Assembly: GCA_963934475.1 (NCBI GenBank)
Contig: CAWVYV010000001.1
Coordinates: 1-39,343, forward strand
Length of the DNA: 39,343 nucleotides
Source of the DNA: an uncultured Alphaproteobacteria bacterium
GTDB lineage: Bacteria; Pseudomonadota; Alphaproteobacteria; TMED109
Direction of reading: 5' to 3'
A program made the position numbers and the translations under genes. Positions within the stretch are counted from its first letter, which is position 1; every line of letters starts with the position of its first letter. Below are positions 8,075 to 38,149 of the stretch, piece by piece. The notes under the pieces were generated by a model. The model saw nothing but the letters and a program-made list of their open reading frames with translations. It was not told where the DNA came from and ran no database searches.

Positions 8075-9703
8075 CTATAAATTAAATTTATAATCTTTAA
8101 ATTGTTCTCTTAATTGTAACTTCTGAATTTTTCCTGTTGCCGTATGTGGTAATGAATCTACAAAGACAACATCATTAGGCATCCACCAAGATGCAATTTT
8201 ATCCTTTAAAAAACTCAAAATTTCATCTTTAGTTACTTCTAAATTTTCATTTTTTACAATTATTAATAATGGCCTTTCATCCCATTTTGGATGAAAAACA
8301 CCAATAACTCCTGCTTCCATTACTGACGGATGTCCTACAGCAAAGTTTTCAATTTCTATAGAACTTATCCATTCTCCTCCAGATTTAATTACATCTTTTG
8401 TTCTATCTGTAATTTGCATGAAACCATCAGCATCTATCGTAGCAACATCTCCTGTTAAAAACCAATCATCTTCCACATGCGTTTCACTATTTTCTATATT
8501 TAAATAACCTGAACATATCCAAGGGCCTCTAACCCATAAATTACCAAAATCTTTTCCATTATTAGGTAGTAATATTCCACTTTCATCTGTGATTTTTATT
8601 TCAATTCCATATACTGGTCTACCTTGTTTTACAGCTATATCTAGTCTTTCTGTAAAACTTTGCCCCTTATGTTTTGGAAGAGGTCTATTAATAGTCCCTA
8701 TAGGTGAAGTTTCTGTCATTCCCCAGCAATGTAATACTTCTACTCCATATTTTTCATAAAACTTTTCCATCATAAATCTAGGACAGGCTGACCCACCTAC
8801 TACACAACTCTTCAAAGAATCTAACTTCTTTCCTGTCTGTTCTAAATATTCAAATAACATTAACCATATAGTGGGAACGGCAGCAGTAAAAGATACTGAC
8901 TCGCTTTCTATAAGAAATTGAACACTTTTACCATCAAGGTTTCTACCAGGCAAAACTAATTTAGCACCTACCATGGTAGTTACATATGGAATAGCCCAGG
9001 CATTTGCATGAAACATAGGGGCAATTGGCATTATTGTATCTCGTGCTGACAAATTCATTGCATCTGGAGCAGCTGCTGCAAAAGCATGAATTACTGTAGA
9101 TCTATGAGAATATAAAACTCCTTTTGGATTACCTGTAGTTCCCGAAGTATAGCATAACGAAGAAGCTGTTTTTTCGTCAAACATTGGCCATTCAAAATTA
9201 CCCTCCTCTCCATCTAATAAGTCCTCATAACAAATTAAGTTACTTAACTTTGAAGATGATGGCATTTGATTCTTATCACATAAAACTATTATTTTTTCTA
9301 GAATATCAACTTTATCTAATAAGTTTTCAATTAGTGGGATAAAATCAATATCAATAAATAAAAATTTATCTTTTGCATCATTGATTATAAATATTAATTG
9401 TTCAGGAAATAACCTAGGATTAATTGTATGACATATAGTACCTATTCCTGATACTCCAAAATATAACTCATAGTGTCTAAGGTTACTCCATGCCATTGTA
9501 GCAATAGTATCACCTTTTTTTGCACCTAATTTTATTAAGGCTTGGGCTAATTTTTTAGCTCTAATATTTACTTTTTGATAATTTGATCTAGTAATTATAC
9601 CGTCAGAGTCACTGCTAATAATTTCTGTATTACCATGATACCTTGCTGCATGATCTAGTAATGAAGAGATTAATAAAGGTCTTTCTGACATTAATCCATT
9701 CAT
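8075..9703 (-). CDS. medium-chain acyl-CoA synthetase (AMP-forming), DmdB-like (3-methylmercaptopropionate-CoA ligase family)
   Basis: 542-aa ORF with the AMP-binding motif [11 protein letters not shown]. The N-terminus [17 protein letters not shown] resembles the DmdB/medium-chain ligase clade as I remember it. Substrate cannot be assigned from sequence. Confidence 0.85.
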
Positions 9704-26014: not shown

Positions 26015-27223
26015 GTGAAACCTAAATCAAAAAACTTAGAACAGCAAAATTGGTCTATAATATTCGGAGTGTGGCTAATATATTTTTGCTTTGGTATTAC
26101 TGTTGCATCAGTTGCTCCACTTGTTCCATATATAACTAATGATTTAAATATATCTTATAAACAGATGGGTTTAATATTAGGCGCATGGCAGTTTACTTAT
26201 ATATTTTTTGCTATACCTGCAGGTTATATATTAGATAAATATGGACTTAAGGCATCTATATTTATGGCCGCCATGATTTTTACTTTATCACTAATATCTA
26301 GAGGACTTTCAAATAATTTTTACCATATGTGGTTATCGGTTGCTTTGTTTGGTATAGGAGGCCCTTTGATATCAGTTGGAGCTCCCAAAGTTTCTAAATT
26401 ATGGAAAAATCAAAAATACAGATCTATCTCTATGGGAATTTTAGTAACGGGACCACTTTTTGGAGGAATAATATCTCTATCTTTTATTAATTCTATATTT
26501 ATGCCACTCCTAAATAATGACTGGCAAAAAGTCTATTTACTATATAGCTTTGTACCTTTTATTTCAGGATGTATATGGTTAATAATATTTAATAGATATA
26601 AAATATCTTATAAAAAAAATACTCTTAATTTAAACATTAAAAAAAGTTTTATGCAATTTAAGCTTATCATTAAGAAAAAAAGATTTTTAATAATCTTAAT
26701 TTTAGGAACCATTTCAATGTTTTTAGTACATGGGATTGCTGGTTGGTTACCTAAAATCATCTCCTCTAAAGGAATAAATATAAATTTATCTAGCTTATTT
26801 GCTATTATACCAAGTTTTATTGGAATAATAGCTGCATTAATTATTCCTAGGTTTTCTAATAATAAAACAAGAGTAATGATTCTTACAATATTATTTTTAA
26901 ATGCAATCTTTGCATTATTCTTAATTCAATCCCTAACTGTACCTCTGTTTATTTTAGGTCTTATATTACTAGGCATTTCAACTGGTTCACTTATTTCTTT
27001 ATTACTAAATCATTTATCCGAAACTAAAGATATTTCATATAATAATATAGGTATAGCAAGTGGTTTATTTTTTTCAGTAATAGAAATTGGCGGTGTAATT
27101 GGTCCTTTTACAATAGGACTAATATATGATTACTATACAGACTTTAATATTGCTCTGAGCTTTTATGCATTATTAATAACTTTTATGATTATTCCTTTAT
27201 ACATCTTAAATAAGTTAAAATAA
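26015..27223 (+). CDS. MFS transporter
   Basis: 402-aa ORF with a GTG start in the track, about 12 TM helices, and the loop 2-3 motif LDKYGLK. Substrate unknown. Confidence 0.8.
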   Translation: MKPKSKNLEQQNWSIIFGVWLIYFCFGITVASVAPLVPYITNDLNISYKQMGLILGAWQFTYIFFAIPAGYILDKYGLKASIFMAAMIFTLSLISRGLSNNFYHMWLSVALFGIGGPLISVGAPKVSKLWKNQKYRSISMGILVTGPLFGGIISLSFINSIFMPLLNNDWQKVYLLYSFVPFISGCIWLIIFNRYKISYKKNTLNLNIKKSFMQFKLIIKKKRFLIILILGTISMFLVHGIAGWLPKIISSKGININLSSLFAIIPSFIGIIAALIIPRFSNNKTRVMILTILFLNAIFALFLIQSLTVPLFILGLILLGISTGSLISLLLNHLSETKDISYNNIGIASGLFFSVIEIGGVIGPFTIGLIYDYYTDFNIALSFYALLITFMIIPLYILNKLK

Positions 27224-27225
27224 AA

Positions 27226-28668
27226 TTAACTTGGAGACACATATGCCGATAAACCTTTAACATTTTCGTTATATGTTAATTGATGATTACTTGGTGGAAA
27301 TGCCCTTTGCCTACAATCTATTCTTGGACAACTTCTGCAAGATACTCCAACTGGAACAATATTTTCAGAGGAATTTAATAAAACTCTCTCTCCATAAATC
27401 ATTTCACTAGCATCATTTAAACTGCACCCTAAGCCTATAGAGTAAAAACTTTCTGGTGAATCAAAACCACCACTTCTTTTTTGGAAAGCTCTTGCAATAC
27501 AAAAATATTTTTCACCATTTGGCATTATAGAAACCTGAACTTTTATTCTGTCTGGTGTGGTAAATGCAGAATATATATTTAGTCTTGGGCATGCTCCACT
27601 ATATCTAGAAATTGCTATTCCTGAAGCTGAAAATCTTTTAGAAATATTTCCTGCTATATCTACCCTCATCATATGAAAAGGTATGCCTCTCTTCCCGGGT
27701 TTATTTAAAGTAGTAAGTCTATGACAAACCTGTTCAAAACTTACTTGAAATCTATTTTCCAAAACCTCTATATCATATTTAGTAAATAATACTTGTTCAT
27801 AAAAAGTGTCATAAGGTAAAATTATTGCACCTGCAAAATAATTGGATAAAGCTAATCTACCTAATTTTCTTACTTCTCCTTCTTCAATATTGTTATCATC
27901 TAATATTGTATTAATTTCTTTATCAGCCAGTAAAAGGCCCATTTGTTGAGCCACCAAAAATGTCCTACTTGCTTGCGGAAGCCTGTCACTAATAACAAGT
28001 GTTTTAGCAACAGGGTCGTAATAGCGTATTGTATCATGCTTTATTTCAGGAGGTATTGTAGCAACTCTAATATTATGCATTTCTGAGAGGTATTCTGATA
28101 AAGGTACAAATAAATTTATATTTTTAGGTTTATTTAGATTCTTTATAATATTAAAAGCTACTCCTTCTAAAGCAGGAAAATAGTTAGAATTTTTTTGAAT
28201 TAAATCTGAAATTATTTCAGCAGAAATATTACCAGACATTCCTTCAAAATTAGAGTTGCCTCCCTCTTCATCATTTATTCCACTTAATTTATTCTGATTT
28301 GTCTTGTGAATATCATAAAGACGAACAATAGCTCTGGCTATCTCTGGTTGAGAAGAAACTAAATCTTGTACATCATGATTTTTTAAATAATTATCATCAA
28401 AAACTGAATCACTAAAAACTTCCATTACATCTGATAGTAAATTTGAATCATTTTCTTTACCAATATCTGCAAGTTCTATATTGAACTCTTGTGCTAAAAT
28501 AATAAGTATTTTACCAGTAACATTTCTTCTATTATTCTCTATAAGGTTTAAATAAGGTGTTGAAATACCTAAAATAGAAGCTAGTCTCTTCTGAGTGAGA
28601 CTTCTTTCTCTTCTCATTCTTCTAATAGCAGCACCCAGCCTGATGCCTTTTGCATTTGGACTTTTCAT
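27226..28668 (-). CDS. ScfR/RamB-family transcriptional regulator (XRE HTH + ImmA/IrrE-like domain + DUF2083)
   Basis: The track ORF runs to 28719. I prefer the ATG at 28666-28668 (MKSPNAKGIRLGAAIRRMR...), preceded by AAAGG. It has an HTH (LTQKRLASILGISTPYLNLIENNRR) and a C-terminal Cys cluster (CRSCPRIDCRQRAFPP). It is divergent from aceA. Confidence 0.85.
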   Translation of the reverse strand: MKSPNAKGIRLGAAIRRMRRERSLTQKRLASILGISTPYLNLIENNRRNVTGKILIILAQEFNIELADIGKENDSNLLSDVMEVFSDSVFDDNYLKNHDVQDLVSSQPEIARAIVRLYDIHKTNQNKLSGINDEEGGNSNFEGMSGNISAEIISDLIQKNSNYFPALEGVAFNIIKNLNKPKNINLFVPLSEYLSEMHNIRVATIPPEIKHDTIRYYDPVAKTLVISDRLPQASRTFLVAQQMGLLLADKEINTILDDNNIEEGEVRKLGRLALSNYFAGAIILPYDTFYEQVLFTKYDIEVLENRFQVSFEQVCHRLTTLNKPGKRGIPFHMMRVDIAGNISKRFSASGIAISRYSGACPRLNIYSAFTTPDRIKVQVSIMPNGEKYFCIARAFQKRSGGFDSPESFYSIGLGCSLNDASEMIYGERVLLNSSENIVPVGVSCRSCPRIDCRQRAFPPSNHQLTYNENVKGLSAYVSPS

Positions 28669-28680
28669 GAAAAAACCTTT

Positions 28681-28793
28681 TTTGTAAAAATTAACAATAT
28701 TACATAAGTTTACAGTCATAAGTTAACATATTTACAACTTATAGCAATATTTAAGTAGGTTAATAGGCATTTTAAGAGTAAAAAGTTTACAAA
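28681..28793. promoter_or_regulatory. cluster of four TTTACA(AA) motifs in the regulator-aceA divergent promoter (candidate operator sites)
   Basis: TTTACAAA lies on the minus strand at 28681-28688 and on the plus strand at 28786-28793. TTTACA also occurs at 28709-28714 and 28731-28736. AAAAGTTTACAAA (28781-28793) resembles the corynebacterial RamB box A(A/G)AACTTTGCAAA as remembered. Confidence 0.3.
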
Positions 28794-28828
28794 TTACATA
28801 AAATTAACAATCTAAATAGGAAAAATAA

Positions 28829-30193
28829 ATGGACGATGCAAACTTAGAAGGCTTATCACCAAGCACAAATACTACATACGACCCTCATAGTAATGAAAAT
28901 ATTACTTCTAAAACAAATGATAACCATGAATGGGAAGTACCAGCTTGGGCACATAATCGTTGGGCAAACATTAAAAGAGATTATACCAAAGAAGATGTAA
29001 ATAAACTTCAAGGGTCTGTCAAAATTAAACACACATTAGCTGAAAATGGTGCAAAAAAACTATGGGAATTACTTCATAAAGAAGATTATGTTGCTACTTT
29101 GGGTACATACACAGGCAATATGGCTGTGCAACAAGCTAGAGCAGGATTAAAAGCAATATACCTATCTGGATGGCAAGTTGCAGCTGATGCAAATAGTTCA
29201 GGACAAATGTACCCAGACCAAAGTCTATATCCTGTTAATAGTGTTCCAGATATTGTTAAAAGAATTAATTTTGCTTTTCAAAGAGCTGATCAAGTTCAAC
29301 ATATGGAAAAATGTGACAATCTTGAGACTACTGATATAGATTTTTATCTTCCAATTATTGCTGATGCTGAAGCGGGTTTTGGCGGACCATTAAATTGTTT
29401 TGAATTAATGAAAAATATGATTGAATCTGGAGCTGCTGCAGTTCACTTTGAAGACCAACTAGCGTCTGAAAAAAAATGTGGTCACTTAGGAGGCAAAGTT
29501 TTAGTTCCTACTGCAACATTTGAGAGAACATTAAATTCAGCAAGATTAGCTGCAGATGTTTTGGGTGTTCCAACATTAATAATGGCAAGAACAGATGCTG
29601 AAGCAGCTAGGTTAATTACAAGCGATATTGATGAGAGAGATCAAAAATTTTTAACAGGAGAGAGAACATCTGAAGGTTTCTACAGAATGACAGGAGGTAT
29701 AGAATGCGCAATTGCTAGAGGTATTGCATATGCTCCTTATGCTGATTTAGTTTGGTGTGAAACTGCAACTCCTGATCTATCTGAAGCAAGAAAATTTGCT
29801 GAAGCTTTAAAAAAAGAACACCCTGATCAAATGCTAGCATATAATTGCTCTCCTTCATTTAACTGGAAGAAACATTTAGATGAAGCACAAATGAAGGTCT
29901 TTCAAAAAGAAATCGCTGCTATGGGTTATAGATTTCAATTCATTACATTGGCAGGTTTTCATAACCTAAACTACTCAACATTTAAGCTTGCTGAAGCCTA
30001 TAAAAAAAATGGGATGGCAGCCTATTCTGAATTACAACAAAAAGAATTTGGTGCAGAAAAAGATGGGTATTCTGCTACAAAACACCAAAGAGAAGTTGGA
30101 GTTTCTTATTTTGATGCAGTATCTAATGCAGTCACAAGAGGTAAATCTGCAACTACAGCAATGAGTGGCTCAACAGAAACAGATCAGTTTTAA
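28829..30193 (+). CDS. aceA: isocitrate lyase
   Basis: 454-aa ORF with the ICL signature [13 protein letters not shown], plus [20 protein letters not shown] and the C-terminal GSTETDQF. Collinear with E. coli AceA, with a roughly 20-aa N-terminal extension. Confidence 0.95.
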
Positions 30194-30202
30194 TCTTCCC
30201 CC

Positions 30203-30236
30203 ATTGTTGGAGAAAATATTACTATTCTCTAACAAT
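30203..30236 (+). terminator. stem-loop downstream of aceA (11 bp stem with one G-U)
   Basis: ATTGTTGGAGA (30203-30213) pairs with TCTCTAACAAT (30226-30236). It starts 10 nt after the aceA stop. There is no clear U-tract. Confidence 0.3.
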
Positions 30237-30240
30237 ATAT

Positions 30241-30269
30241 TATAAGGAGTAATTTAATTGCTCCTTATA
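30241..30269 (+). terminator. second stem-loop downstream of aceA (perfect 9 bp stem)
   Basis: TATAAGGAG (30241-30249) pairs with CTCCTTATA (30261-30269), followed by ATTGCTTTT. This is one of the very few intergenic hairpins in the window. Confidence 0.4.
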
Positions 30270-30334
30270 ATTGCTTTTGACGCAGAGCAAATAACTTTAT
30301 ATAACTTCTTATAAGTAAATTAAGGAATAAATAT

Positions 30335-31321
30335 ATGTTTAATTCATTAGTCTTAAATAAAACAGATGATCAAAAAGCTACAGGAAAAGTTGAAGTAATA
30401 ACAGTTTCTGATTTACCTGAAGGTGATGTTTTAATAAATATTGATTACTCAACTATTAATTATAAAGATGCACTAGCAATTACATCCTCATCTCCAATAA
30501 TCAAGAATTACCCTATGGTGCCAGGTATTGATTTTTCTGGAACAGTAGAAGAAACCTCAAATAATAATTTCAAGATTGGCGACAAAGTCATACTTAATGG
30601 TTTTGGAGTTGGAGAAAAATACTGGGGAGGATTATCACAAAAAGCTCGAGTAAATGGTAATTGGCTAGTTAAACTTCCTGAAAAATTTACAACTAAACAA
30701 GCTATGGCTATTGGAACTGCAGGATATACTGCAATGTTATGTGTATTAGCTTTAGAAAAAAATGGCGTAACACCTGAAAAAGGCGAAATATTAGTAACTG
30801 GTGCTACAGGAGGCGTTGGAAGTGTCGCAATATCATTATTAGCAAAACTAGGCTACAACGTAACAGCCTCTTCTGGTAGAGCTATTCATAGCGAATACCT
30901 AAAGTCCTTGGGTGCAAAAACTGTAATAGATAGAAAAGAATTATCTGAAAAAGGGAGACCATTAGGCAAAGAAATATGGGCAGGAGCCATAGATTCCGTT
31001 GGAAGTCATACATTAGCTAATATATGCGCTTCTATAAAATATGGAGGAACTGTTGCTGCATGTGGTTTAGCTCAAGGTTATGATTTACCTACTACTGTAA
31101 TGCCTTTTATCTTAAGAAATGTCACTTTAGCTGGAGTAGATAGTGTGTATTGCCCAATAGAAGAAAGAACAGTGGCATGGGAAAGATTAGCTCAAGACTT
31201 AAACTTGGCTCATCTTGACAGTATGATTACAACAATTGCCCTTTCTGAAGTTGTTAGCACTGCAAACAACATGCTTTCAGGAAAAACTCACGGCAGAATA
31301 CTTGTAGATGTTAATGCATAA
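30335..31321 (+). CDS. acuI: acrylyl-CoA reductase (NADPH), AcuI/YhdH family MDR
   Basis: 328-aa ORF. The N-terminus MFNSLVLNK...VSDLPEGDVLINIDYSTINYKDALAIT...YPMVPGIDFSGTVEE closely follows the YhdH/AcuI pattern, and it has GATGGVGSVAISLLAKLGY. Confidence 0.8.
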   Translation: MFNSLVLNKTDDQKATGKVEVITVSDLPEGDVLINIDYSTINYKDALAITSSSPIIKNYPMVPGIDFSGTVEETSNNNFKIGDKVILNGFGVGEKYWGGLSQKARVNGNWLVKLPEKFTTKQAMAIGTAGYTAMLCVLALEKNGVTPEKGEILVTGATGGVGSVAISLLAKLGYNVTASSGRAIHSEYLKSLGAKTVIDRKELSEKGRPLGKEIWAGAIDSVGSHTLANICASIKYGGTVAACGLAQGYDLPTTVMPFILRNVTLAGVDSVYCPIEERTVAWERLAQDLNLAHLDSMITTIALSEVVSTANNMLSGKTHGRILVDVNA

Positions 31322-31325
31322 ATAT

Positions 31326-32048
31326 TTATTGATTAATAATAAGCTTTTGCTTCCTATTGCCATCTAAATAATCTGCATTTAATACTTTCAACTCTTCATC
31401 TAAGTTTATTACAAGTGGATTACCTGTAGGTATTTCTAATTCATTAATTTTTTCATTAGAAATGTTAAAAAGTTTTTTACACAAGGCTCTTAAAGAATTG
31501 CCATGCGCAGCAATAATTATGTTTTTGCCCTCAATAACCTTTGGTTTAATATTTAAATCAAAATAAGGTATGACTCTATCATAAGTATCTTTTAATGACT
31601 CTGTATTTGGAACAAACTTAGAATCAAGATTATTATAAATCTCATCTGACCTAGGGTTGAATTTATTATCTTTATCTAGTTCTGGTGGAGCAATATCCCA
31701 AGACCTCCTATAGATTTTAATTTGATCTTCCCCTAATTTTTCTTTCATTTCTGATTTGTTTAATCCAGTCAAATTTCCATAATGCCTCTCATTAAATTCC
31801 CATGATTTAATTATATTAATATTTTCTAATGACATATTTTTAAGAATAATTTTTAAAGTATTTTTAGCTCGTTTTAGATAAGATGTATAAGCATGATCAA
31901 TATTAATGTTTTCAGCTATTAATAACTCTCCTGCTTTTTTAGCTTCCAATATACCATTATCAGATAGCTCTACATCGTACCAACCCGTAAAACGATTTTC
32001 AAGATTCCATGTACTCTGTCCATGACGCACTAAAATTAATTTGCTCAT
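31326..32048 (-). CDS. gpmA: 2,3-bisphosphoglycerate-dependent phosphoglycerate mutase
   Basis: 240-aa ORF with LILVRHGQSTWNLENRFTGW, the ERHYG motif and AAHGNSLRAL. Confidence 0.9.
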   Translation of the reverse strand: MSKLILVRHGQSTWNLENRFTGWYDVELSDNGILEAKKAGELLIAENINIDHAYTSYLKRAKNTLKIILKNMSLENINIIKSWEFNERHYGNLTGLNKSEMKEKLGEDQIKIYRRSWDIAPPELDKDNKFNPRSDEIYNNLDSKFVPNTESLKDTYDRVIPYFDLNIKPKVIEGKNIIIAAHGNSLRALCKKLFNISNEKINELEIPTGNPLVINLDEELKVLNADYLDGNRKQKLIINQ

Positions 32049-32141
32049 AAATATTTTCCTATTAAAACCATATTTGGTATTTTTAATAACATGCTTTATA
32101 CTAAAGACAATAGCCTTAAATAAACCAATACTTATGGTTTT

Positions 32142-32936
32142 TTAATGCCCTTTAAAAACAGGCTTTCTTTTTTCTGAAAAAGCTAAACGTCCTTCTTCAT
32201 AATCCTTACTAGAAAAACAAATTGCTTCAAACTCCTTACATTTTTTATACAAATCTTTATCCTCTATATCTGCATCAATAGCTAACTTTGCAGAAGCTAT
32301 TGTTAAAGGAGCATTACCTATAATAGTATTTAATACTTGCATAACACCTTCTTTAAAATCTTTTTCCTTAAAAATTTGTTCTATAATGCCCATTTGGATT
32401 GCTTCAGTTGATGAAAATTGTCTCGCAGTAAAAAAAATATACTTGGCGCGAGATGGACCAATTAGATCTCTCAATTTTTTTATTCCTAAATAATCATAAG
32501 CTAACCCTAATTTAGCTGCAGGAATTGCAAATGTACTTTTTTCAGATGCTATACGAACATCACAAGAAAGTGCTGTTGCTAACCCTCCTCCAATGCAATA
32601 GCCATTAATAATTGCTATTGTAGGTTTAGGAAAATTTTGCAAAATATTAAGAGTTGTTTTTGAAACATTATCATATAGTAAAACAGCTTCTTCTAGTGAT
32701 CTATTGTCATTAAATTCAGATATATCTGCACCAGCTGAAAAAGCTTTTTCACCATTACCTGTCATAACAACACACCTAATGTCTTTATTTTTTTTATATT
32801 CCTCTAATGTGGTTCCAATTTTTTCCCACATAGAAAATGATATTGCATTTAATTTTGAAGGGTTATCTAAAACTATATATCCTACTCTGTTCTCTATATA
32901 GGAATTAATGCTTCCAGCTAGTTTTTTACTACTCAT
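32142..32936 (-). CDS. enoyl-CoA hydratase/isomerase (crotonase family)
   Basis: 264-aa ORF with GNGEKAFSAGADI, NGYCIGGGLATALSCDVRIA and EGRLAFSEKRKP. Its ATG overlaps the CoA-transferase stop (ATGA at 32933-32936). Confidence 0.85.
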   Translation of the reverse strand: MSSKKLAGSINSYIENRVGYIVLDNPSKLNAISFSMWEKIGTTLEEYKKNKDIRCVVMTGNGEKAFSAGADISEFNDNRSLEEAVLLYDNVSKTTLNILQNFPKPTIAIINGYCIGGGLATALSCDVRIASEKSTFAIPAAKLGLAYDYLGIKKLRDLIGPSRAKYIFFTARQFSSTEAIQMGIIEQIFKEKDFKEGVMQVLNTIIGNAPLTIASAKLAIDADIEDKDLYKKCKEFEAICFSSKDYEEGRLAFSEKRKPVFKGH

Positions 32937-34111
32937 ATTATTCTCTCCATTTTAAATTTTTTAATTTTATCTTTACTATAACCAAGCTCATTTAAAATTA
33001 TATCCGTATGCTCGCCTTTATTTGGCGCTGCTGTTTTAATCTTACTAGGTGTTCTACTAAGCTTCATAGCTTGGCCAACTAATTTTATTTTTCCTAATTT
33101 GGGATGCACAACTGTTTGAGCAATTTTTGAATGCATTATCTGAGGGTCATCAAAAACTTCTTTAATATTATTAATCGGGCCACAAGGTATACTTGCTTCA
33201 TTTAACCTTATTATCCATTCCTCCTTAGTATTTTTTGATAAAGCATTATTAATAATATCTGTAAGCTTTTTTCTATTATTAGTGCGGGCTATATCATCCT
33301 CAAAATCTTTATCGTCTAAAGACTTTCGAATATTTAATACATTACATAATCGTCTCCACATAGCCTCACCAGTAGATGCTATATTAATATACCCATCTGC
33401 AGCATTATATGTTCCCATAGGTGTCATGGTAGGGTGATTATTGCCTGTTTGTCCGGCTATTTCATTAGACACTAAATAACGAGACGCTTGAAAATCTAAC
33501 ATAGATACTTGTGACTCAAGCAAAGAAGCGCTAACAAATTGCCCTCTTCCCGACCTTTCACGTTCGTACAAAGCAGTTAAAATTCCTAATGCACAATGTA
33601 AACCTGCACTTAAATCTGCAACTGGAATGCCTACTCTTAAAGGCCCTTGATCTTTAAACCCAGTTACAGACATTAAACCACCCATACCTTGAGCCACCTG
33701 GTCATATCCAGGAAGGTCTGCGTATGGACCACTTTGCCCAAACCCTGAAATACTAGCGTAGATCAAACGGGGGTTTATTTTTTCTAAAACTTCATAATTA
33801 ATACCGAGTCTTTTCTTTACTTTAGGGCGAAAGTTTTCAACCAATATATCCGCCTTAATAATTAGTTTTTTTAATATTTTTATGCCTTCTATACTTTTTA
33901 AATTAAGCGTTATACTTCTTTTATTTCTGTGTAAATTTTGAAAATCTGACCCTTCTCTTCTGCCACCTAGATCTTGGCTACCATCTATACTATCAGGAGG
34001 CTCTATTTTAATTACATCAGCACCCCAATCAGCAAACTGTCTAACTGCAGATGGTCCAGACCTAACTCTAGTTAGGTCTATTAATTTAAGTCCTTGTAAA
34101 GCTTCTTCCAT
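32933..34111 (-). CDS. family III CoA-transferase (CaiB/BaiF/Frc type)
   Basis: 392-aa ORF with LKLIDLTRVRSGPSAVRQFADWGADVIKIEPP, VENFRP and the family-typical Asp in GIPVADL. Confidence 0.9.
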   Translation of the reverse strand: MEEALQGLKLIDLTRVRSGPSAVRQFADWGADVIKIEPPDSIDGSQDLGGRREGSDFQNLHRNKRSITLNLKSIEGIKILKKLIIKADILVENFRPKVKKRLGINYEVLEKINPRLIYASISGFGQSGPYADLPGYDQVAQGMGGLMSVTGFKDQGPLRVGIPVADLSAGLHCALGILTALYERERSGRGQFVSASLLESQVSMLDFQASRYLVSNEIAGQTGNNHPTMTPMGTYNAADGYINIASTGEAMWRRLCNVLNIRKSLDDKDFEDDIARTNNRKKLTDIINNALSKNTKEEWIIRLNEASIPCGPINNIKEVFDDPQIMHSKIAQTVVHPKLGKIKLVGQAMKLSRTPSKIKTAAPNKGEHTDIILNELGYSKDKIKKFKMERII

Positions 34112-34181
34112 AACTATATATATACACTCACATTAAAATAATTTACAACAAACTATATCATTATTTATAAGGCAAATAAAT

Positions 34182-34556
34182 TTGGAACACTTGTTAGAAA
34201 TATGGCTATTTAATGAAAATGCACACCTAAAAGGTATGGCATTTGGCTTAGTCCATTCATCTATTATGCTTTTAGGGTATTACAGTGGTTGGAGTATAAA
34301 TAGATTTTTTAAAATTATTTCTAATGGTTATATAGCAGGCATTATAGGAGCAGCATTATCTCATATTATTGCAGATATTTTAGCATCTTTAATAGACCCT
34401 CATCTTAGATCAGCAGTTTATGGAATTGCTCTTGGCGGAATTATTCCTCTTTTAACAATTCCTATTTTAGAAAGATGGATTATTAAAAGTAAGCACCATA
34501 TTGTAGTTGGTGACCATGAAGATATTGAAAAAGATATCAAATTAAAACATAAGTAA
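34182..34556 (+). CDS. small polytopic membrane protein with His-rich C-terminal tail, unknown function
   Basis: 124-aa ORF with a TTG start in the track; an ATG at 34236 (MAFGLVHSS...) is an alternative. Three hydrophobic helices and the tail KSKHHIVVGDHEDIEKDIKLKHK. No family recognised. Confidence 0.5.
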   Translation: MEHLLEIWLFNENAHLKGMAFGLVHSSIMLLGYYSGWSINRFFKIISNGYIAGIIGAALSHIIADILASLIDPHLRSAVYGIALGGIIPLLTIPILERWIIKSKHHIVVGDHEDIEKDIKLKHK

Positions 34557-34639
34557 ATTTCTTCCTACTCACCACTAAAGAATGTTGCTATTTATTTTTA
34601 TTTAATAGACACTGGTTTTTTAGGTAAATGGACGTCTGA

Positions 34640-35833
34640 ATGAAAATCATAACAAAGATATTTTTTTTTAACTTATTATTAATAATTTTATTACAAAAAA
34701 CATCTAATGCAGAACGCCTTGCAATTTTAAATTGGGAAACTAAGGCACCAGAGTCTCTTGATAGCTTATCTCTTTCTAAAATTAAAGGTAGAGAAGAAGG
34801 TATAGCAATTATCGAACTTGATAAAAACAGTAAAGACTATGGGAAAATCCTATCTAATATTCCAGTAGATCCAAGCTTAGTTCTACACCATATTTTTTAT
34901 AATCAAGACTTAACTAAGGCATATATAACTGCATTAGAAGGAAACAACCTTTATTATATTAACCTTAAAGATAAGGTTTGGAGACTAAGAGAAATACCTG
35001 TGCCTATGTGCAAAGTTCAAGAAAATATAATTTTTTCAAATAATAATAAAAAGTGGTGGTTAACATGCATGGGATCATCAAATATCATAGAAGGTAATGC
35101 AGAAAATGATACGATAGTTAAAGTAATACATATTCCTAATTCTTACCCTCATGGAATAACTTTAAATGAAGATATTGACAGATTACTTGTTGCAAATTGT
35201 GTAGCTCCAGATATGAGCAGTGCAGGCAAAACTATTGAAGTTATTGAAGCATCTACCGGCAAGCATTTGGAAAGTATAATAATATCAAGAGGAACACTAA
35301 ATGCACCAGTAGAAGTTGTATTCATTCCAAAAACAAACCCTCCAATTGCTTATGCTACGACTATGATGGAAAATAGTTTATGGGCATTAAAATGGGATAA
35401 TAATTTAAAATCATTTATAACAAAAGAAGTTTTTGATTTTAGAAAAAATGATAAGTCTCTTATGCCACTTGAAATATATTATAATAACAATACTACTAGG
35501 GCCTACATAACTTCTGCTGATCCAGGTGGTATTCATATTTTTGATATATCTAAAGACAAGATGAATCCTACTTTAATTAAAAGCCTAAAAACAGCAGGAG
35601 GTTCCCACCATGTAGCAATAAGTAAAAATGAAAATTTTGCTTATGTACAAAACGGCTTATTAAATATACCTGGAATCAATGATGGATCTATATCAGTTAT
35701 TGATTTAGATAAACTAGAAGTCATAGATTCTATTGATACATTTAAAAAAGATGGCAAAGTACCTAATTCAATCACATTACTACCCGAATGGTACAATCCT
35801 GCTGGTCACATAAATAATGGCTTATTAGATTAA
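34640..35833 (+). CDS. secreted beta-propeller protein, selenium-binding protein (SBP56) / methanethiol oxidase (MtoX)-like
   Basis: 397-aa ORF with the Sec signal MKIITKIFFFNLLLIILLQKTSNA|ER. Four blocks align by eye with SELENBP1 as remembered (details in findings). Propeller-like repeats throughout. Confidence 0.55.
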   Translation: MKIITKIFFFNLLLIILLQKTSNAERLAILNWETKAPESLDSLSLSKIKGREEGIAIIELDKNSKDYGKILSNIPVDPSLVLHHIFYNQDLTKAYITALEGNNLYYINLKDKVWRLREIPVPMCKVQENIIFSNNNKKWWLTCMGSSNIIEGNAENDTIVKVIHIPNSYPHGITLNEDIDRLLVANCVAPDMSSAGKTIEVIEASTGKHLESIIISRGTLNAPVEVVFIPKTNPPIAYATTMMENSLWALKWDNNLKSFITKEVFDFRKNDKSLMPLEIYYNNNTTRAYITSADPGGIHIFDISKDKMNPTLIKSLKTAGGSHHVAISKNENFAYVQNGLLNIPGINDGSISVIDLDKLEVIDSIDTFKKDGKVPNSITLLPEWYNPAGHINNGLLD

Positions 35834-35838
35834 GATAT

Positions 35839-37278
35839 TTAATGGATAATTGGCTCAGACAATATCCATAAACTAAATACCGTATACAAAATCATAAAAA
35901 TAGATAAGGGGAAATGTGCCTTAATAGCATTTTTTTTATTTACTACTAATGTATAAGCAATTTTTTGCGAAATAATTATTGACGCTATATGTCCAATTAT
36001 GACACTAAATAAAATTACACTCCATCCTATTTTAGCATTGATTATAAATGGGTTTATTTTATAATTTGCTGTATTAAATAAATCCCAACCTAAATTTAAT
36101 GGGTCAGATAACAATGGAAAAGCTAGTTGACCTGCAATTAATAAAAATGAAAAATAATGCGCTACATGGTAAGCAGCGGCTATAGGTATCAATGAAGGTG
36201 CAAAAATTATAATAAGAGACTTTATATTATAATCTTGTTTATAATATTTTAACCCTTTAGCACAACTTACAGAAAATAAAATGAATAAAAGCATAGGCAT
36301 AAAAATAATACCTAATGTATCAAGTATAATGTGAAGGTCACCAAACACAGATACTAGAAATTTAAATATAGGTATTAAAAATGAGATTGATATTATAAAT
36401 AATTTAAAATTATTCCAAAAGTTTGTTTCTAATAATCCATCAAAACTAATACTTGAGACAGCAATAATAATAAATATAGTGGAATATATGTTGCCTTTAC
36501 CCATTAATATTCCTGAAAATGGCATTCTAAGACTAGCTTTATTTAAATTATTAAATGGTTTATATATTCCTATTCTACCTAACATACCAAAATATATAGA
36601 AAAAATTTCGGCATAAGAAAACCAACGAACTCTTCCATATATAAACATACCTAAAAATGTAATTAATGAGTAAGCAACTAAAAATAAAGATAAATTTTTA
36701 GGAACCTCTCTACCGGGGTATACTATTGCGAACCAAAGAAATATAGTTAGCAGAAATACACCTAAAATACTTACTTCTTTTATAGATTTTCTTTTCAGCC
36801 TTTTAGCCCATTTAAATTTATATAAACTTTTTATCAATAAGGTGAATGAATAAAACCAAGGATTAAGTCTAGGCCATATATTACCACTAATTATGGATAA
36901 ATAAGCAAATCCAACCCAGAACCATACCCAAATAAACACATTTAGAATATTATTTAATGGTCCTTGATCTCCATAATAGCCTATATATATAAGTAGTATT
37001 AAAATTAAAGAGCTTAAAATACCTAACCATTTATTATTATAAATATGCCTCTCAGATACTACTTTGCTAGATTTAATACTTTTATTTATAAAATATTTTG
37101 AGAAAACTAAAGTTATAATAATGATAAGAATAGATGCTATAAAATATATATATATAGGAATAGGTAATTCGTACCTTACATTCAGTCCATGAGAAAATGC
37201 GATTGAAGGAAAAAAAACAATAGATATAACTCTAAGTAATATATTACTTAGTAGGTAAAAATGGGATTTTTTTACCAT
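35839..37278 (-). CDS. polytopic (12 or more TM) membrane protein, unknown family
   Basis: 479-aa ORF. The N-terminal signal-like segment ends IAFS|HG, followed by LNVRYELPIP and then TM helices. Intramembrane AAYHVAHYFSF and IIGHIASI. No family recognised by eye. Confidence 0.6.
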   Translation of the reverse strand: MVKKSHFYLLSNILLRVISIVFFPSIAFSHGLNVRYELPIPIYIYFIASILIIIITLVFSKYFINKSIKSSKVVSERHIYNNKWLGILSSLILILLIYIGYYGDQGPLNNILNVFIWVWFWVGFAYLSIISGNIWPRLNPWFYSFTLLIKSLYKFKWAKRLKRKSIKEVSILGVFLLTIFLWFAIVYPGREVPKNLSLFLVAYSLITFLGMFIYGRVRWFSYAEIFSIYFGMLGRIGIYKPFNNLNKASLRMPFSGILMGKGNIYSTIFIIIAVSSISFDGLLETNFWNNFKLFIISISFLIPIFKFLVSVFGDLHIILDTLGIIFMPMLLFILFSVSCAKGLKYYKQDYNIKSLIIIFAPSLIPIAAAYHVAHYFSFLLIAGQLAFPLLSDPLNLGWDLFNTANYKINPFIINAKIGWSVILFSVIIGHIASIIISQKIAYTLVVNKKNAIKAHFPLSIFMILYTVFSLWILSEPIIH

Positions 37279-37573
37279 CAGTTATATTTTTCTTAACTAT
37301 AGTTTTATTTTTGGTACACCCAATTTTAATAAATAGTTCTACCTGCCCTAAACCATCTTCACCTTTGCAAAGACTTACTGGTAAATTTGATTTGGCACCA
37401 ATTAAATCATCATGCAGCACTTTATTACATATTAAATCAGTAACTTTTACCTGAGAGTTCATCTCTGATAAATTAACTATAAAAACTTCTAATGTGTCTG
37501 AAGAATAAGCAGAAGATTGGCATAGTAAAATAAAAATGAACACTAGTTTTAAGTATAGATTTTTCATGTACAA
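37244..37573 (-). CDS. small secreted Cys-containing protein, unknown function
   Basis: 109-aa ORF (the start may be the third codon, MKNLYLKL...). Signal peptide ...LLCQSSAYS|SD, with three Cys in the mature part. Its 3' end overlaps the next gene by 35 nt. Confidence 0.5.
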   Translation of the reverse strand: MYMKNLYLKLVFIFILLCQSSAYSSDTLEVFIVNLSEMNSQVKVTDLICNKVLHDDLIGAKSNLPVSLCKGEDGLGQVELFIKIGCTKNKTIVKKNITDGKKIPFLPTK

Positions 37574-37666
37574 CTTTCTAATATTTAACTGTTATAATAC
37601 TATCATTTATTAAAATACTATACTATCCATTAGTTAATTAATAAATGGTTTAAATAATATAATAAT

Positions 37667-38149
37667 TTATAATTTGGTTGGATTAGGCATATTTTTATAT
37701 ACCTTTTCGGGATCAAAAGATTTTTCATCTTCTATAAATTTTAAAGGTTCTGCAATACCAGACTCTCCTATAGAAACTTCTCTATAAAAACAACTTCTAT
37801 AGCCCACATGACAAGAAGCTTCATTTCCTCCTAAATCAGGGCCTGTCAAAGAGACTTCTATGACTAAACTATCTTGGTCATCATCAATTAGCATTCTATC
37901 TAATTTCTGAACCATTCCAGACGTCTCACCTTTTTTCCATATACTCTCTCTAGACCTTGACCAATAATGTGCATAGCCTGATGATATTGTTAATTTTAAT
38001 GCCTCCTCATTCATATAAGCAAACATTAAAACTTCTTTAGTCTCTGCGTGTATAGTTATACAAGGTATCACACCTTTCTCATCAAACTTTGGTGTAAGGT
38101 CTGTACCTTCTTCAACTTGTTCTATAGAGACTCTTTTTTTAAAACTCAT
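37667..38149 (-). CDS. hisI: phosphoribosyl-AMP cyclohydrolase
   Basis: 160-aa ORF with SRSRESIWKKGETSG and IDDDQDSLVIEV...CHVGYRSCFY, the HisI Zn/Mg site pattern. Confidence 0.85.
   Translation of the reverse strand: MSFKKRVSIEQVEEGTDLTPKFDEKGVIPCITIHAETKEVLMFAYMNEEALKLTISSGYAHYWSRSRESIWKKGETSGMVQKLDRMLIDDDQDSLVIEVSLTGPDLGGNEASCHVGYRSCFYREVSIGESGIAEPLKFIEDEKSFDPEKVYKNMPNPTKL

Follow-up and report, generated by a model that had tools for sequence, protein, structure and literature searches.

The window, by which we mean the whole 39,343-nucleotide stretch of DNA analysed, derives from a marine SAR11-type bacterium with a streamlined genome. It carries a locus that encodes a secreted propeller protein and three small or polytopic membrane and secreted proteins (Table 1). 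The four ORFs reported in the preliminary description of this DNA are real and their coordinates match; the stops of the convergent propeller and 479-aa genes are indeed 5 nt apart, and the 109-aa ORF shares 35 nt with the start of the 479-aa ORF. For the 3-Cys protein, independent gene calls take an ATG two codons in. All four proteins fall short of every Pfam and NCBIfam cutoff.

Table 1 Features of the propeller locus in the window.
Feature	Coordinates	Strand	Source
Small membrane protein, 124 aa, TTG start	34182..34556	+	ORF list
Secreted propeller, 397 aa	34640..35833	+	ORF list
Membrane protein, 479 aa	35839..37278	-	ORF list
3-Cys secreted protein, 109 aa (107 aa by independent gene calls)	37244..37573	-	ORF list

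The window also contains the DmdB-like and AcuI genes described earlier, 25 kb (808 bits; cutoff 822) and 3 kb (525 bits; cutoff 440) from the locus, respectively. The earlier statement that SCO1/SenC and MauG genes are missing near the propeller holds: the corresponding Pfam families are absent within 10 kb in three copies of the window's locus, and neither is a recurrent neighbour in 80 species loci of the propeller. The neighbouring genes of the window give no pointer to a substrate.

The propeller is exported through a Sec signal and belongs to a family of more than 630 clusters. Its AlphaFold (AF2) model (pLDDT 90.7) consists of seven blades of four strands each. The top Foldseek match of this model is the Sulfolobus SBP56 structure 2ECE (E = 2.3e-14; TM 0.73, query), followed by YVTN propellers, lactonases and the copper enzyme thiocyanate dehydrogenase (TcDH), the structures of which match at TM ~0.62. 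The NCBIfam MtoX profile (NF052453) matches the window propeller with 34.9 bits (E = 5.6e-9; cutoff 650 bits) and all 36 family members tested (36/36), in every case below threshold and at best with E = 2e-12, whereas Pfam SBP56 (PF05694; cutoff 34 bits) gives no match to the window propeller at E<=1. By hhalign, the propeller family aligns with human SELENBP1 over 285 collinear columns (91.7% probability; E = 7.7e-7), and a C-terminal 'E..YP.G' tail is common to the propeller and SBP56/MtoX. The SBP56 likeness noticed in the preliminary description is thus beyond chance. Three of the four alignment blocks on which it was based are right, but the second, LMPLEIYYNNN, is one blade off, as hhalign pairs the SELENBP1 segment 'LIPLEIRF' with 'APVEVVFIP' (propeller residues 222–234). 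The propeller is also shorter than canonical SBP56, as had been estimated (~70 aa), by 75 aa relative to SELENBP1 and by ~40 aa relative to MtoX.

Other propeller families fit less well. Membership of the YncE or YVTN-lactonase families was rejected because both profile scores are under the family cutoffs (PF21783, 13.3 bits against 27.1; NF052280, 17.7 bits against 400). The public name of the protein, 'YncE family protein', is generic. The L-NosZ profile (NF052460) scores 20.7 bits (E = 1.2e-4; cutoff 700 bits) and weakly matches 25 of the 36 family members (best E = 1.2e-7). The propeller belongs to an uncharacterised family that is a distant relative of SBP56/MtoX both by sequence profile and by fold. 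Its conservation (60 invariant columns; 45% identity between phyla) suggests an enzyme rather than a simple binder.

The residues invariant in the propeller family are H83, H84, E128, H171, E225, E278, H323, H324, H390 and the Cys pair C124/C143. In blades 1–6, H83/H84, E128, H171, E225, E278 and H323/H324 each lie where the first strand begins, and H390 is in the C-terminal tail. A further conserved His, H299, which brings the conserved propeller His (H83, H84, H171, H299, H323, H324 and H390) to seven, is on an outer strand. Judging from the strand positions and the SELENBP1 alignment, the invariant His/Glu cluster would be located in the central channel. Sites composed of His and Glu also bind Zn, Ni or Fe.

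Six residues are essential for the thiol oxidase activity of SELENBP1 (Philipp et al., PMC10362175); the cavity residues H73/H74 and E252 are needed for Cu-dependent activity, and the HXXH motif (H137/H140), D189 and the disease residue H329 are likewise needed for activity (PMC10362175). Bacterial MtoX has four strictly conserved His: H89, H90, H140 and H412 (PMC5739008). In the propeller, the XHHX motif is kept, with the invariant H83/H84 pair of blade 1 aligned to SELENBP1 H73/H74 (MtoX H89/H90), and SELENBP1 E252 pairs with the invariant blade-4 residue E225. The HXXH copper motif is lost, with H137 opposite a 14-residue gap and H140 aligned to M123; the H140-type position of MtoX is lost too, and SELENBP1 C141, just after HXXH, is retained as C124. 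SELENBP1 D189 corresponds to I173, with the invariant H171 two residues earlier, and H329 to the invariant P295, so that only E252 is kept among D189, E252 and H329. Since H73/H74 and E252 are the only activity-essential SELENBP1 residues with counterparts, the earlier view of the protein as a 'minimal' divergent methanethiol oxidase is not supported. We likewise reject the propeller as an MtoX orthologue or 'minimal MtoX', given the score of 35 versus 650 bits, the loss of HXXH, D189 and H329, and the lack of SCO1/MauG genes nearby. Invariant E128, H171, E278, H323/H324 and H390 are new relative to SBP56/MtoX; the family's own His/Glu set separates it from these distant relatives, and its predicted metal pocket appears to differ from that of copper methanethiol oxidases.

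The 479-aa protein is composed of a signal peptide followed by ~12 TM helices. Its predicted mature N-terminus is H30, in the motif A|HGxxxRY[DE]LPxP located after the hydrophobic leader; residue -1 is small (A, S or G) in 40/40 homologues with a recognisable motif. The His that signal cleavage would expose and the intramembrane His pair, both noted earlier, are conserved. H30 is invariant in a 29-sequence alignment (A2) and 95% conserved among 62 locus homologues; H374 and H430 are invariant in A2, and H371 reaches 87% conservation in the set of 62. H371/H374 (TM10) and H430 (TM11) are positioned mid-membrane. Neither the protein nor its Kangiella homologue matched any Pfam family at E<=1, the protein had no NCBIfam match either, and Foldseek found no structural relative in the PDB for the AF2 model (pLDDT 85.3; best E 0.16, TM ~0.1). 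The protein is widespread, with 7808 representative clusters, and, as modelled, structurally unprecedented. Because its family is much larger than that of the propeller, it is not dedicated to the propeller. Among its homologues, a single representative carries a fused Cu/Zn-SOD domain (Sod_Cu, 6.6e-34), and a different one has a weak fusion match, below cutoff, to YtkA-like.

The closest parallels to this part of the locus are CopC/CopD (YcnJ-type) and HupE/UreJ-type proteins. With CopC/CopD it shares the combination of a small periplasmic β-sandwich protein and a polytopic membrane protein, with CopC the His at the predicted mature N-terminus, and with YcnJ the occasional YtkA-like C-terminal domains. 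HupE/UreJ-type permeases also expose a His at the mature N-terminus, and intramembrane His are a feature of both groups. In contrast to CopC/CopD, the module has no Pfam CopC or CopD match even at E<=1, and it is the membrane protein itself that bears the N-terminal His. The 479-aa protein also has 12 TM helices rather than 8 and an AlphaFold model with no structural relative in the PDB. We regard it as a putative metal (Cu) transporter or insertase, with features that fit metal delivery.

Of 45 well-flanked species loci, 36 have the 479-aa gene within 3.5 kb of the propeller gene; the layout is divergent in 28 of these, convergent in 6 and co-directional in 2, and the remaining ~20% of loci lack the gene. 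The distance matrices of the two proteins are correlated (Mantel r 0.80, reached by 0/999 permutations), which could reflect shared species phylogeny. The usual partner of the 479-aa family is a Cys-less cupredoxin-like protein with an invariant HxHGYD...H motif (three His) and weak Cupredoxin_1 matches, the gene for which is present in 29/45 well-flanked propeller loci and absent from the window. Lacking Cys, this protein cannot provide a CuA or type-1 copper site. On an actinobacterial-looking contig that has no propeller with it, the pair is encoded immediately upstream of a UbiA-family gene, and in Janthinobacterium its flanks carry a TonB receptor and a PepSY_TM gene. The 3-Cys protein is unrelated to the cupredoxin-like family (hhalign 0.3%). 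Its conserved residues are C49, C69 and C86, all in the mature part, plus N34, D46 and D56, with C18 inside the signal peptide; homologues adjoining the propeller are 53% (L001) and 42% (L087) identical. The 3-Cys family was found in 16 sources, all in the closest propeller clade, and is thus a conserved propeller partner only in a marine alphaproteobacterial subclade. Apart from the 479-aa, cupredoxin-like and 3-Cys genes, no neighbour recurs in 80 species loci, and the proposed DMSP link is accordingly not conserved.

The upstream 124-aa protein, a small membrane protein with a His-rich C-terminal tail, behaves differently. Its family comprises 2111 clusters from Pelagibacterales, SAR116, Methylophilaceae and Legionellales, with 65–72% identity between distant taxa. 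In Pelagibacterales, the gene follows a FUR-family gene near ZrgA/DUF3299/ABC genes, and in Methylophilaceae it is located between a TonB receptor and MerC, in neither case with a propeller; in MarineAlpha9 (L008), it is 4.5 kb from the propeller. A specific partnership with the propeller was rejected on the grounds of this abundance and of its occurrence elsewhere without a propeller. The protein is probably a neighbour, from an abundant marine family of metal-regulated loci, and not a dedicated part of the module. Thus, of the three partners proposed in the preliminary description, the synteny of the 479-aa gene is broad, that of the 3-Cys gene is limited to the subclade, and the 124-aa protein is not a specific partner.

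We put at roughly one half the probability that the propeller represents a new family of periplasmic metalloenzymes, with its metal-delivery unit in the convergent two-gene unit. The seven-bladed propeller shares ancestry and the blade-1 HH motif with SBP56/MtoX, whereas its central pocket would be a remodelled one, made of three invariant Glu together with five or six invariant His. Such a pocket would probably hold copper, perhaps as more than one ion. The convergent unit would serve as the metal-supply machinery: the 12-TM protein, which probably supplies the propeller with copper or another metal, may move or hand over the metal through its N-terminal His 'arm' and intramembrane His cluster. 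The small periplasmic 3-Cys protein would be the second part of the supply, taking the place of the Cys-less three-His cupredoxin-like protein of most other bacteria. Because no electron-transfer partner is conserved, the most economical guess for the enzymatic activity would be the oxidation of a small sulfur or nitrogen compound with O2; methanethiol is a possible but unsupported substrate.

A metal-acquisition role is distinctly less probable. The propeller would then be a periplasmic metal binder or metallochaperone that passes Zn, Cu or Ni to the 479-aa permease for import, with the small proteins as auxiliary chaperones. The analogue would be AztD, a ~400-aa periplasmic propeller of 8 blades that has three His ligands at its centre, another His ligand at the C-terminus and a conserved disulfide (PMC6689063), features echoed in the length and location of our propeller, its central His, the C124/C143 pair, H390 near the C-terminus and the association with membrane transport. 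The transporter-like 479-aa protein with mid-membrane His, the 124-aa neighbour from a family of Fur/Zur-type and CsoR-type loci, the TonB receptor and PepSY_TM gene flanking the module in Janthinobacterium, and the SCO4226-like nickel-responsive protein in Methylobacter loci are consistent with such a role. However, the propeller has no detectable similarity to AztD chains (PDB profile search, E<=1), has 7 blades rather than 8 in its model, and arranges its ligands and Cys in a different sequence order. Its overall conservation is far stronger than that of AztD, in which only ligands and Gly/Pro are conserved (PMC6689063). No ABC transporter or Zur context is present, and regulators of the Fur, Zur, CueR and CsoR kinds are not recurrent neighbours of the module in the 80 loci. 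Furthermore, the permease is missing from ~20% of propeller loci and mostly occurs without the propeller, and some relatives have NosR-like, SorA-like and MsrA neighbours, which hint at redox chemistry.

Oxidation of methanethiol (or another small thiol or selenol) released in DMSP demethylation, the earlier reading of this locus, appears improbable. Among characterised families, MtoX comes closest by profile and SBP56 by fold, the HH motif is kept along with the counterpart of E252, and the propeller is periplasmic, as is bacterial MtoX, which has an mtoX-SCO1/senC-mauG gene arrangement (PMC5739008). The DmdB-like and AcuI genes of the window, a SorA-like sulfite-oxidase-type enzyme and cytochrome c beside one relative (L016) and MsrA beside another (L031) point the same way. 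Against it stand the sub-cutoff MtoX score and the missing SBP56 match, the loss of three sets of SELENBP1 residues and of the MtoX H140-type position (PMC5739008), the novel membrane and small periplasmic partners in place of a SCO1/SenC-MauG operon, the absence of linked DMSP genes in other taxa, and the fact that the family is common in bacteria of soil and fresh water that have no link to DMSP. Least probable, and by a wide measure unlikely, is a NosZ/L-NosZ-like multicopper periplasmic reductase that would take electrons from the membrane partner or, in some lineages, NosR-like proteins and reduce a small oxidant such as N2O. The CuZ site has seven His ligands, which the seven conserved propeller His recall; the weak L-NosZ matches, the NosR-like FMN/FeS membrane proteins adjoining the propeller in L089/L090, L015 and L016, and a Crp/Fnr-type regulator in L001 also favour it. 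Like TcDH, NosZ and clade III L-NosZ, the propeller is periplasmic and seven-bladed with a predicted His-rich central site, and the concept of a copper propeller with dedicated accessory proteins is common to all. Nevertheless, sequence profiles gave it no significant match to the solved chains of TcDH or NosZ, its His alternate with three invariant Glu, and the L-NosZ score is far from the cutoff. It is a propeller-only protein with no C-terminal CuA cupredoxin domain, and the separate cupredoxin-like protein is Cys-less and not encoded in the window. Neither nosDFYL genes nor a cytochrome recur in the 80 loci, no haem or FeS motif is evident in the 479-aa protein, H299 is on an outer strand, and the hosts are mostly aerobes, the SAR11-type host not being known to denitrify.

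More tentatively, the 12-TM protein and its small partner may represent an undescribed, very widespread system for loading copper or another metal into periplasmic metalloproteins, and the propeller a new class of His/Glu metallo-propeller enzymes, sister to MtoX, thiocyanate dehydrogenase and NosZ, that acts on a small sulfur or nitrogen compound. If so, the loading system would have a membrane fold with no solved relative and a small partner that is cupredoxin-like or, in SAR11-type genomes, of the 3-Cys type, and a new metallo-propeller enzyme would be at work in oxic seawater and soils.

The four ORFs of the module are arranged as the preliminary description had it, exact in coordinates and layout, with 5 nt separating the stop codons of the converging propeller and membrane protein genes in a window of ~30% G+C. 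Scanned against Pfam and NCBIfam, none of the four reached a threshold or could be assigned to a family. The locus is identical in marine metagenome assemblies and in one marine alphaproteobacterial MAG, and the exact propeller sequence occurs in 140 indexed blocks of the assembly collection. A further copy, in locus L004, is otherwise identical but holds ~1.1 kb more between the 3-Cys gene and hisI, where a 92-aa ORF is encoded; the module edge is variable at this point. A promoter and terminator scan of positions 33900–37800 returned fewer promoter-like sites than shuffled sequences, and no convincing Fur or Zur box was seen when the intergenic regions were read by eye. The DmdB-like ligase and AcuI genes to which the preliminary description had drawn attention are present (the ligase scores 808 against an NCBIfam equivalog cutoff of 822, and AcuI lies above its cutoff), but no other lineage has them linked to the module, and the carbon-metabolism neighborhood of the window is unrelated to the module in other taxa.

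Features of the window and of related loci (L numbers)
Feature	Sequence	Coordinates	Strand	Remark
124-aa membrane protein	window	34182-34556	+	ORF
Secreted propeller, 397 aa	window	34640-35833	+	ORF
Membrane protein, 479 aa	window	35839-37278	-	ORF, convergent with propeller
Secreted 3-Cys protein, 109 aa	window	37244-37573	-	ORF, 35-nt overlap with start of 479-aa gene
DmdB-like ligase and AcuI genes	window	8075-9703, 26015-34111 (carbon-metabolism neighborhood as a whole)		
Histidine-phosphatase-family gene	window	31326-32048		between AcuI and module
Enoyl-CoA hydratase and CaiB-type CoA-transferase genes	window			between AcuI and module
Isocitrate lyase with RamB-like regulator, MFS transporter	window			upstream of AcuI
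Extra DNA with 92-aa ORF	L004	12928-14121		corresponds to window 37573-37667
Propeller with neighboring genes	L001	6455-9673		584-kb contig
NosR-like protein beside propeller	L089/L090	5952-8156		
NosR-like proteins, then SorA-like molybdoenzyme and cytochrome c	L016	3071-7137, 7152-8979		
124-aa family members	L091-L093	4001-4372		
124-aa family members	L094/L095	4001-4372		
Cupredoxin-like and membrane pair	L096	5570-8076		no propeller
Cupredoxin-like and membrane pair with flanking genes	L069	2607-6073		Janthinobacterium

The propeller belongs to a taxonomically broad family of at least 630 clusters at 90% identity, whose members bear no public name other than 'YncE family protein' or 'hypothetical'. 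In a search of one genome per species, 328 relatives were identified, among them members of Pelagibacterales, Rhodospirillales, Kangiella, Janthinobacterium, Microvirga, Photobacterium, Methylobacter, Methylomirabilota, Nitrospirota and Rokubacteria, and in the literature on mtoX or SBP56 in SAR11/Pelagibacter we found no account of the family. An AlphaFold model derived from 36 family members (pLDDT 90.7) is built of seven blades with four strands each, and three strands from the N-terminus and one from the C-terminus close it. Its top Foldseek match among solved structures is Sulfolobus tokodaii SBP56 (2ECE; E 2e-14, TM 0.73), followed by YVTN propellers, lactonases and the tricopper thiocyanate dehydrogenase (TM ~0.62). 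A profile search of the PDB with the family gave generic YVTN matches only, with 2ECE at E 0.11. The NCBIfam MtoX model matched all 36 members below threshold (best 2e-12), the clade III L-NosZ model 25 of them and the hydrazine synthase beta model 17. For a direct comparison by hhalign, we used a human SELENBP1 sequence that passed two checks: its score against PF05694 is 752 bits, and each of the 14 residues that PMC10362175 numbers in its Table 1 stands at the stated position. The propeller family aligned with it at 91.7% probability (E 7.7e-7) over 285 collinear columns. Of the four blocks that had been matched to SBP56 by eye, this alignment reproduced 1, 3 and 4, and placed block 2 one blade off.

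The preliminary description had proposed a minimal methanethiol oxidase; its observations were confirmed with small corrections, and the interpretation found partial support. In SELENBP1, H73, H74, H137, H140, D189 and E252 are each needed for copper-dependent thiol oxidase activity, and H329Y is a loss-of-function patient variant (Philipp et al., PMC10362175). In the alignment, H73/H74 correspond to H83/H84 and E252 to E225, all invariant in the propeller family; H137 falls within a 14-residue deletion, H140 is replaced by M123, D189 by I173 and H329 by the invariant P295. Bacterial MtoX strictly conserves H89, H90, H140 and H412 and is encoded in a conserved mtoX-SCO1/senC-mauG operon (Eyice et al., PMC5739008), whereas the propeller family has lost the H140-type position and has no SCO1 or MauG gene nearby. 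Judged by these residues and gene neighbors, the propeller is not an MtoX orthologue. The family has an invariant set of its own, with 60 such columns at 45–85% identity, including H83, H84, C124, E128, C143, H171, E225, E278, H323, H324 and H390, along with many polar and aromatic residues. H83/84, E128, H171, E225, E278 and H323/324 open the first strands of blades 1 to 6 in the model, at the position where propellers line their central channel. From the model, we infer that the central metal pocket has been rebuilt, with His and Glu alternating.

Linkage of the propeller with its partners was assessed by calling ORFs in 80 species-representative propeller loci and searching them with HMMs built from the neighbors; genes within 3.5 kb were counted in the 45 loci whose sequence extends 3.5 kb or more to either side of the propeller. 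A membrane gene of the 479-aa type was found in 36 of these loci, a gene for a ~125-aa cupredoxin-like protein in 29 and the 3-Cys gene in five. Relative to the propeller, the membrane gene lies upstream and divergent in 28 cases, downstream and convergent, as in the window, in six, and is co-directional in two; that the linkage survives rearrangement speaks for a functional tie between the two. Pairwise distances of the propeller and the adjacent membrane protein correlate (Mantel r 0.80, reached by none of 999 permutations), a correlation to which shared phylogeny could contribute. All-against-all clustering of 947 neighboring ORFs revealed no further family in more than seven loci, and therefore no conserved cytochrome, regulator or chaperone of known type. 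A four-gene version in the Tara contig L087 consists of the propeller followed by convergent membrane, cupredoxin-like and 3-Cys genes. The window contains the membrane and 3-Cys genes, and an HMM search of all its ORFs of at least 50 aa across 39 kb found no cupredoxin-like gene. The 3-Cys protein was considered as a divergent cupredoxin-like protein and rejected (hhalign 0.3%).

The remaining context in relatives is heterogeneous and hints at redox chemistry of small sulfur compounds without defining a substrate. NosR-like FMN/FeS membrane proteins adjoin the propeller in L089/L090 and L015, making two or three lineages with L016, where a SorA-like molybdoenzyme and a cytochrome c follow. 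MsrA precedes the propeller in a Methylomirabilales MAG, and a TetR regulator and an SCO4226-like protein do so in Methylobacter. In L001, a Crp/Fnr-type regulator and two paralogous 3-Cys proteins come before the propeller and a His-rich protein after it, with no membrane partner within 8 kb. This 155-aa His-rich protein is a divergent member of the cupredoxin-like family (hhalign 99.8%).

The membrane protein family is far larger than the propeller family: an exhaustive profile search returned 7808 representative clusters with E<=1e-3, of which 2034 have E<=1e-30. Foldseek found no solved relative of its AlphaFold model (pLDDT 85.3; best E 0.16, TM ~0.1). The positive-inside rule applied to the model helices predicts 12 transmembrane segments with both termini outside. 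A hydrophobic leader precedes the motif A|H-G-x-x-x-R-Y-[DE]-L-P-x-P, with predicted cleavage between A and H. H30, which would become the N-terminal residue, does not vary in a 29-sequence alignment and is retained in 95% of 62 locus homologues; position -1 holds A, S or G in all 40 homologues with a recognized motif. Also conserved are Y370, H371 and H374 mid-way in a 40-residue helix, H430 mid-way in the next, and D280 and E284. Some of the top matches (among them P0367, P0388, P0283, P0405 and P0413) are extended at the C-terminus by a further domain, such as Cu/Zn superoxide dismutase (6.6e-34), YtkA-like (a weak match), TPR repeats or a BNR propeller. In many homologues, including P0285, P0287, P0367 and P0388, a loop predicted to be periplasmic contains a Cys-rich insert (CxxCxxxC...CxxCxxC). 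Three homologues (P0285, P0296 and P0287) carry an unannotated C-terminal extension of ~400 aa, cut short in P0287; identification of these extensions as propellers or family-5 solute-binding domains was dropped, as they are not propellers by sequence and have no Pfam match at E 0.1.

The cupredoxin-like partner lacks Cys, matches Cupredoxin_1 weakly, and has an invariant HxHGYD motif plus a third His. It and the membrane protein also occur as a pair without any propeller. On the actinobacterial-looking contig L096, a lipoprotein version of the cupredoxin-like protein accompanies the membrane protein, and directly downstream of both comes a UbiA-family gene that we interpret as haem O synthase-like. 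In Janthinobacterium (L069, and similarly L058, L061 and L067), a TonB-dependent receptor and a PepSY_TM protein flank the pair, which suggests a metal-uptake context in that genus. Overall, the pair resembles a general unit for metal handling, in the simplest case of copper, which would serve a range of periplasmic clients; CopC/CopD is an analogue, not a relative.

The 124-aa protein belongs to an unannotated family of more than 2100 clusters, abundant in marine taxa and 65–72% identical across Pelagibacterales, SAR116, Methylophilaceae and Legionellales. Other Pelagibacterales have its gene directly after a FUR-family gene, with whose stop it overlaps, and ZrgA, DUF3299 and ABC transporter genes are found alongside. 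The Methylophilaceae copy is flanked by genes for a TonB-dependent receptor and MerC, with a CsoR-type repressor close by, and that of MarineAlpha9 is 4.5 kb from the propeller. This His-tailed protein is probably a metal-homeostasis membrane protein in its own right, and its adjacency to the propeller in the window may or may not be meaningful.

The best-supported model, to which we assign a probability of about 0.5, is that the propeller represents a new family of periplasmic metalloenzymes with a dedicated metal-delivery unit. The main competing explanation casts the propeller as the binding protein or chaperone of a metal-acquisition system, comparable to AztD for zinc (PMC6689063). We consider it rather unlikely: sequence conservation of the propeller is much stronger than that of AztD, metal regulators are absent, and the propeller and the permease are partly independent. 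That the propeller is a true methanethiol oxidase, despite missing residues known to be needed, is less probable still, and a NosZ-like reductase, with neither a CuA domain nor accessory genes, is very improbable. The module would be a metal propeller with a maturation partner, and the unexplored family of the membrane partner is its more novel element.

Metal propellers of this superfamily catalyze methanethiol oxidation, thiocyanate oxidation and N2O reduction, reactions that bear on climate and the sulfur cycle. A further propeller family with its own conserved active-site residues, which at least 328 species genomes encode in lineages as far apart as SAR11-type plankton, Nitrospirota and methanotrophs, may represent an unrecognized reaction. 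Because it comprises thousands of clusters with no Pfam model or PDB relative, an N-terminal His and a Cu/Zn superoxide dismutase fusion, the membrane family is a concrete candidate for a so far missing pathway that supplies periplasmic enzymes with metal. Both ideas are testable in the culturable hosts Janthinobacterium, Kangiella, Photobacterium and Microvirga.
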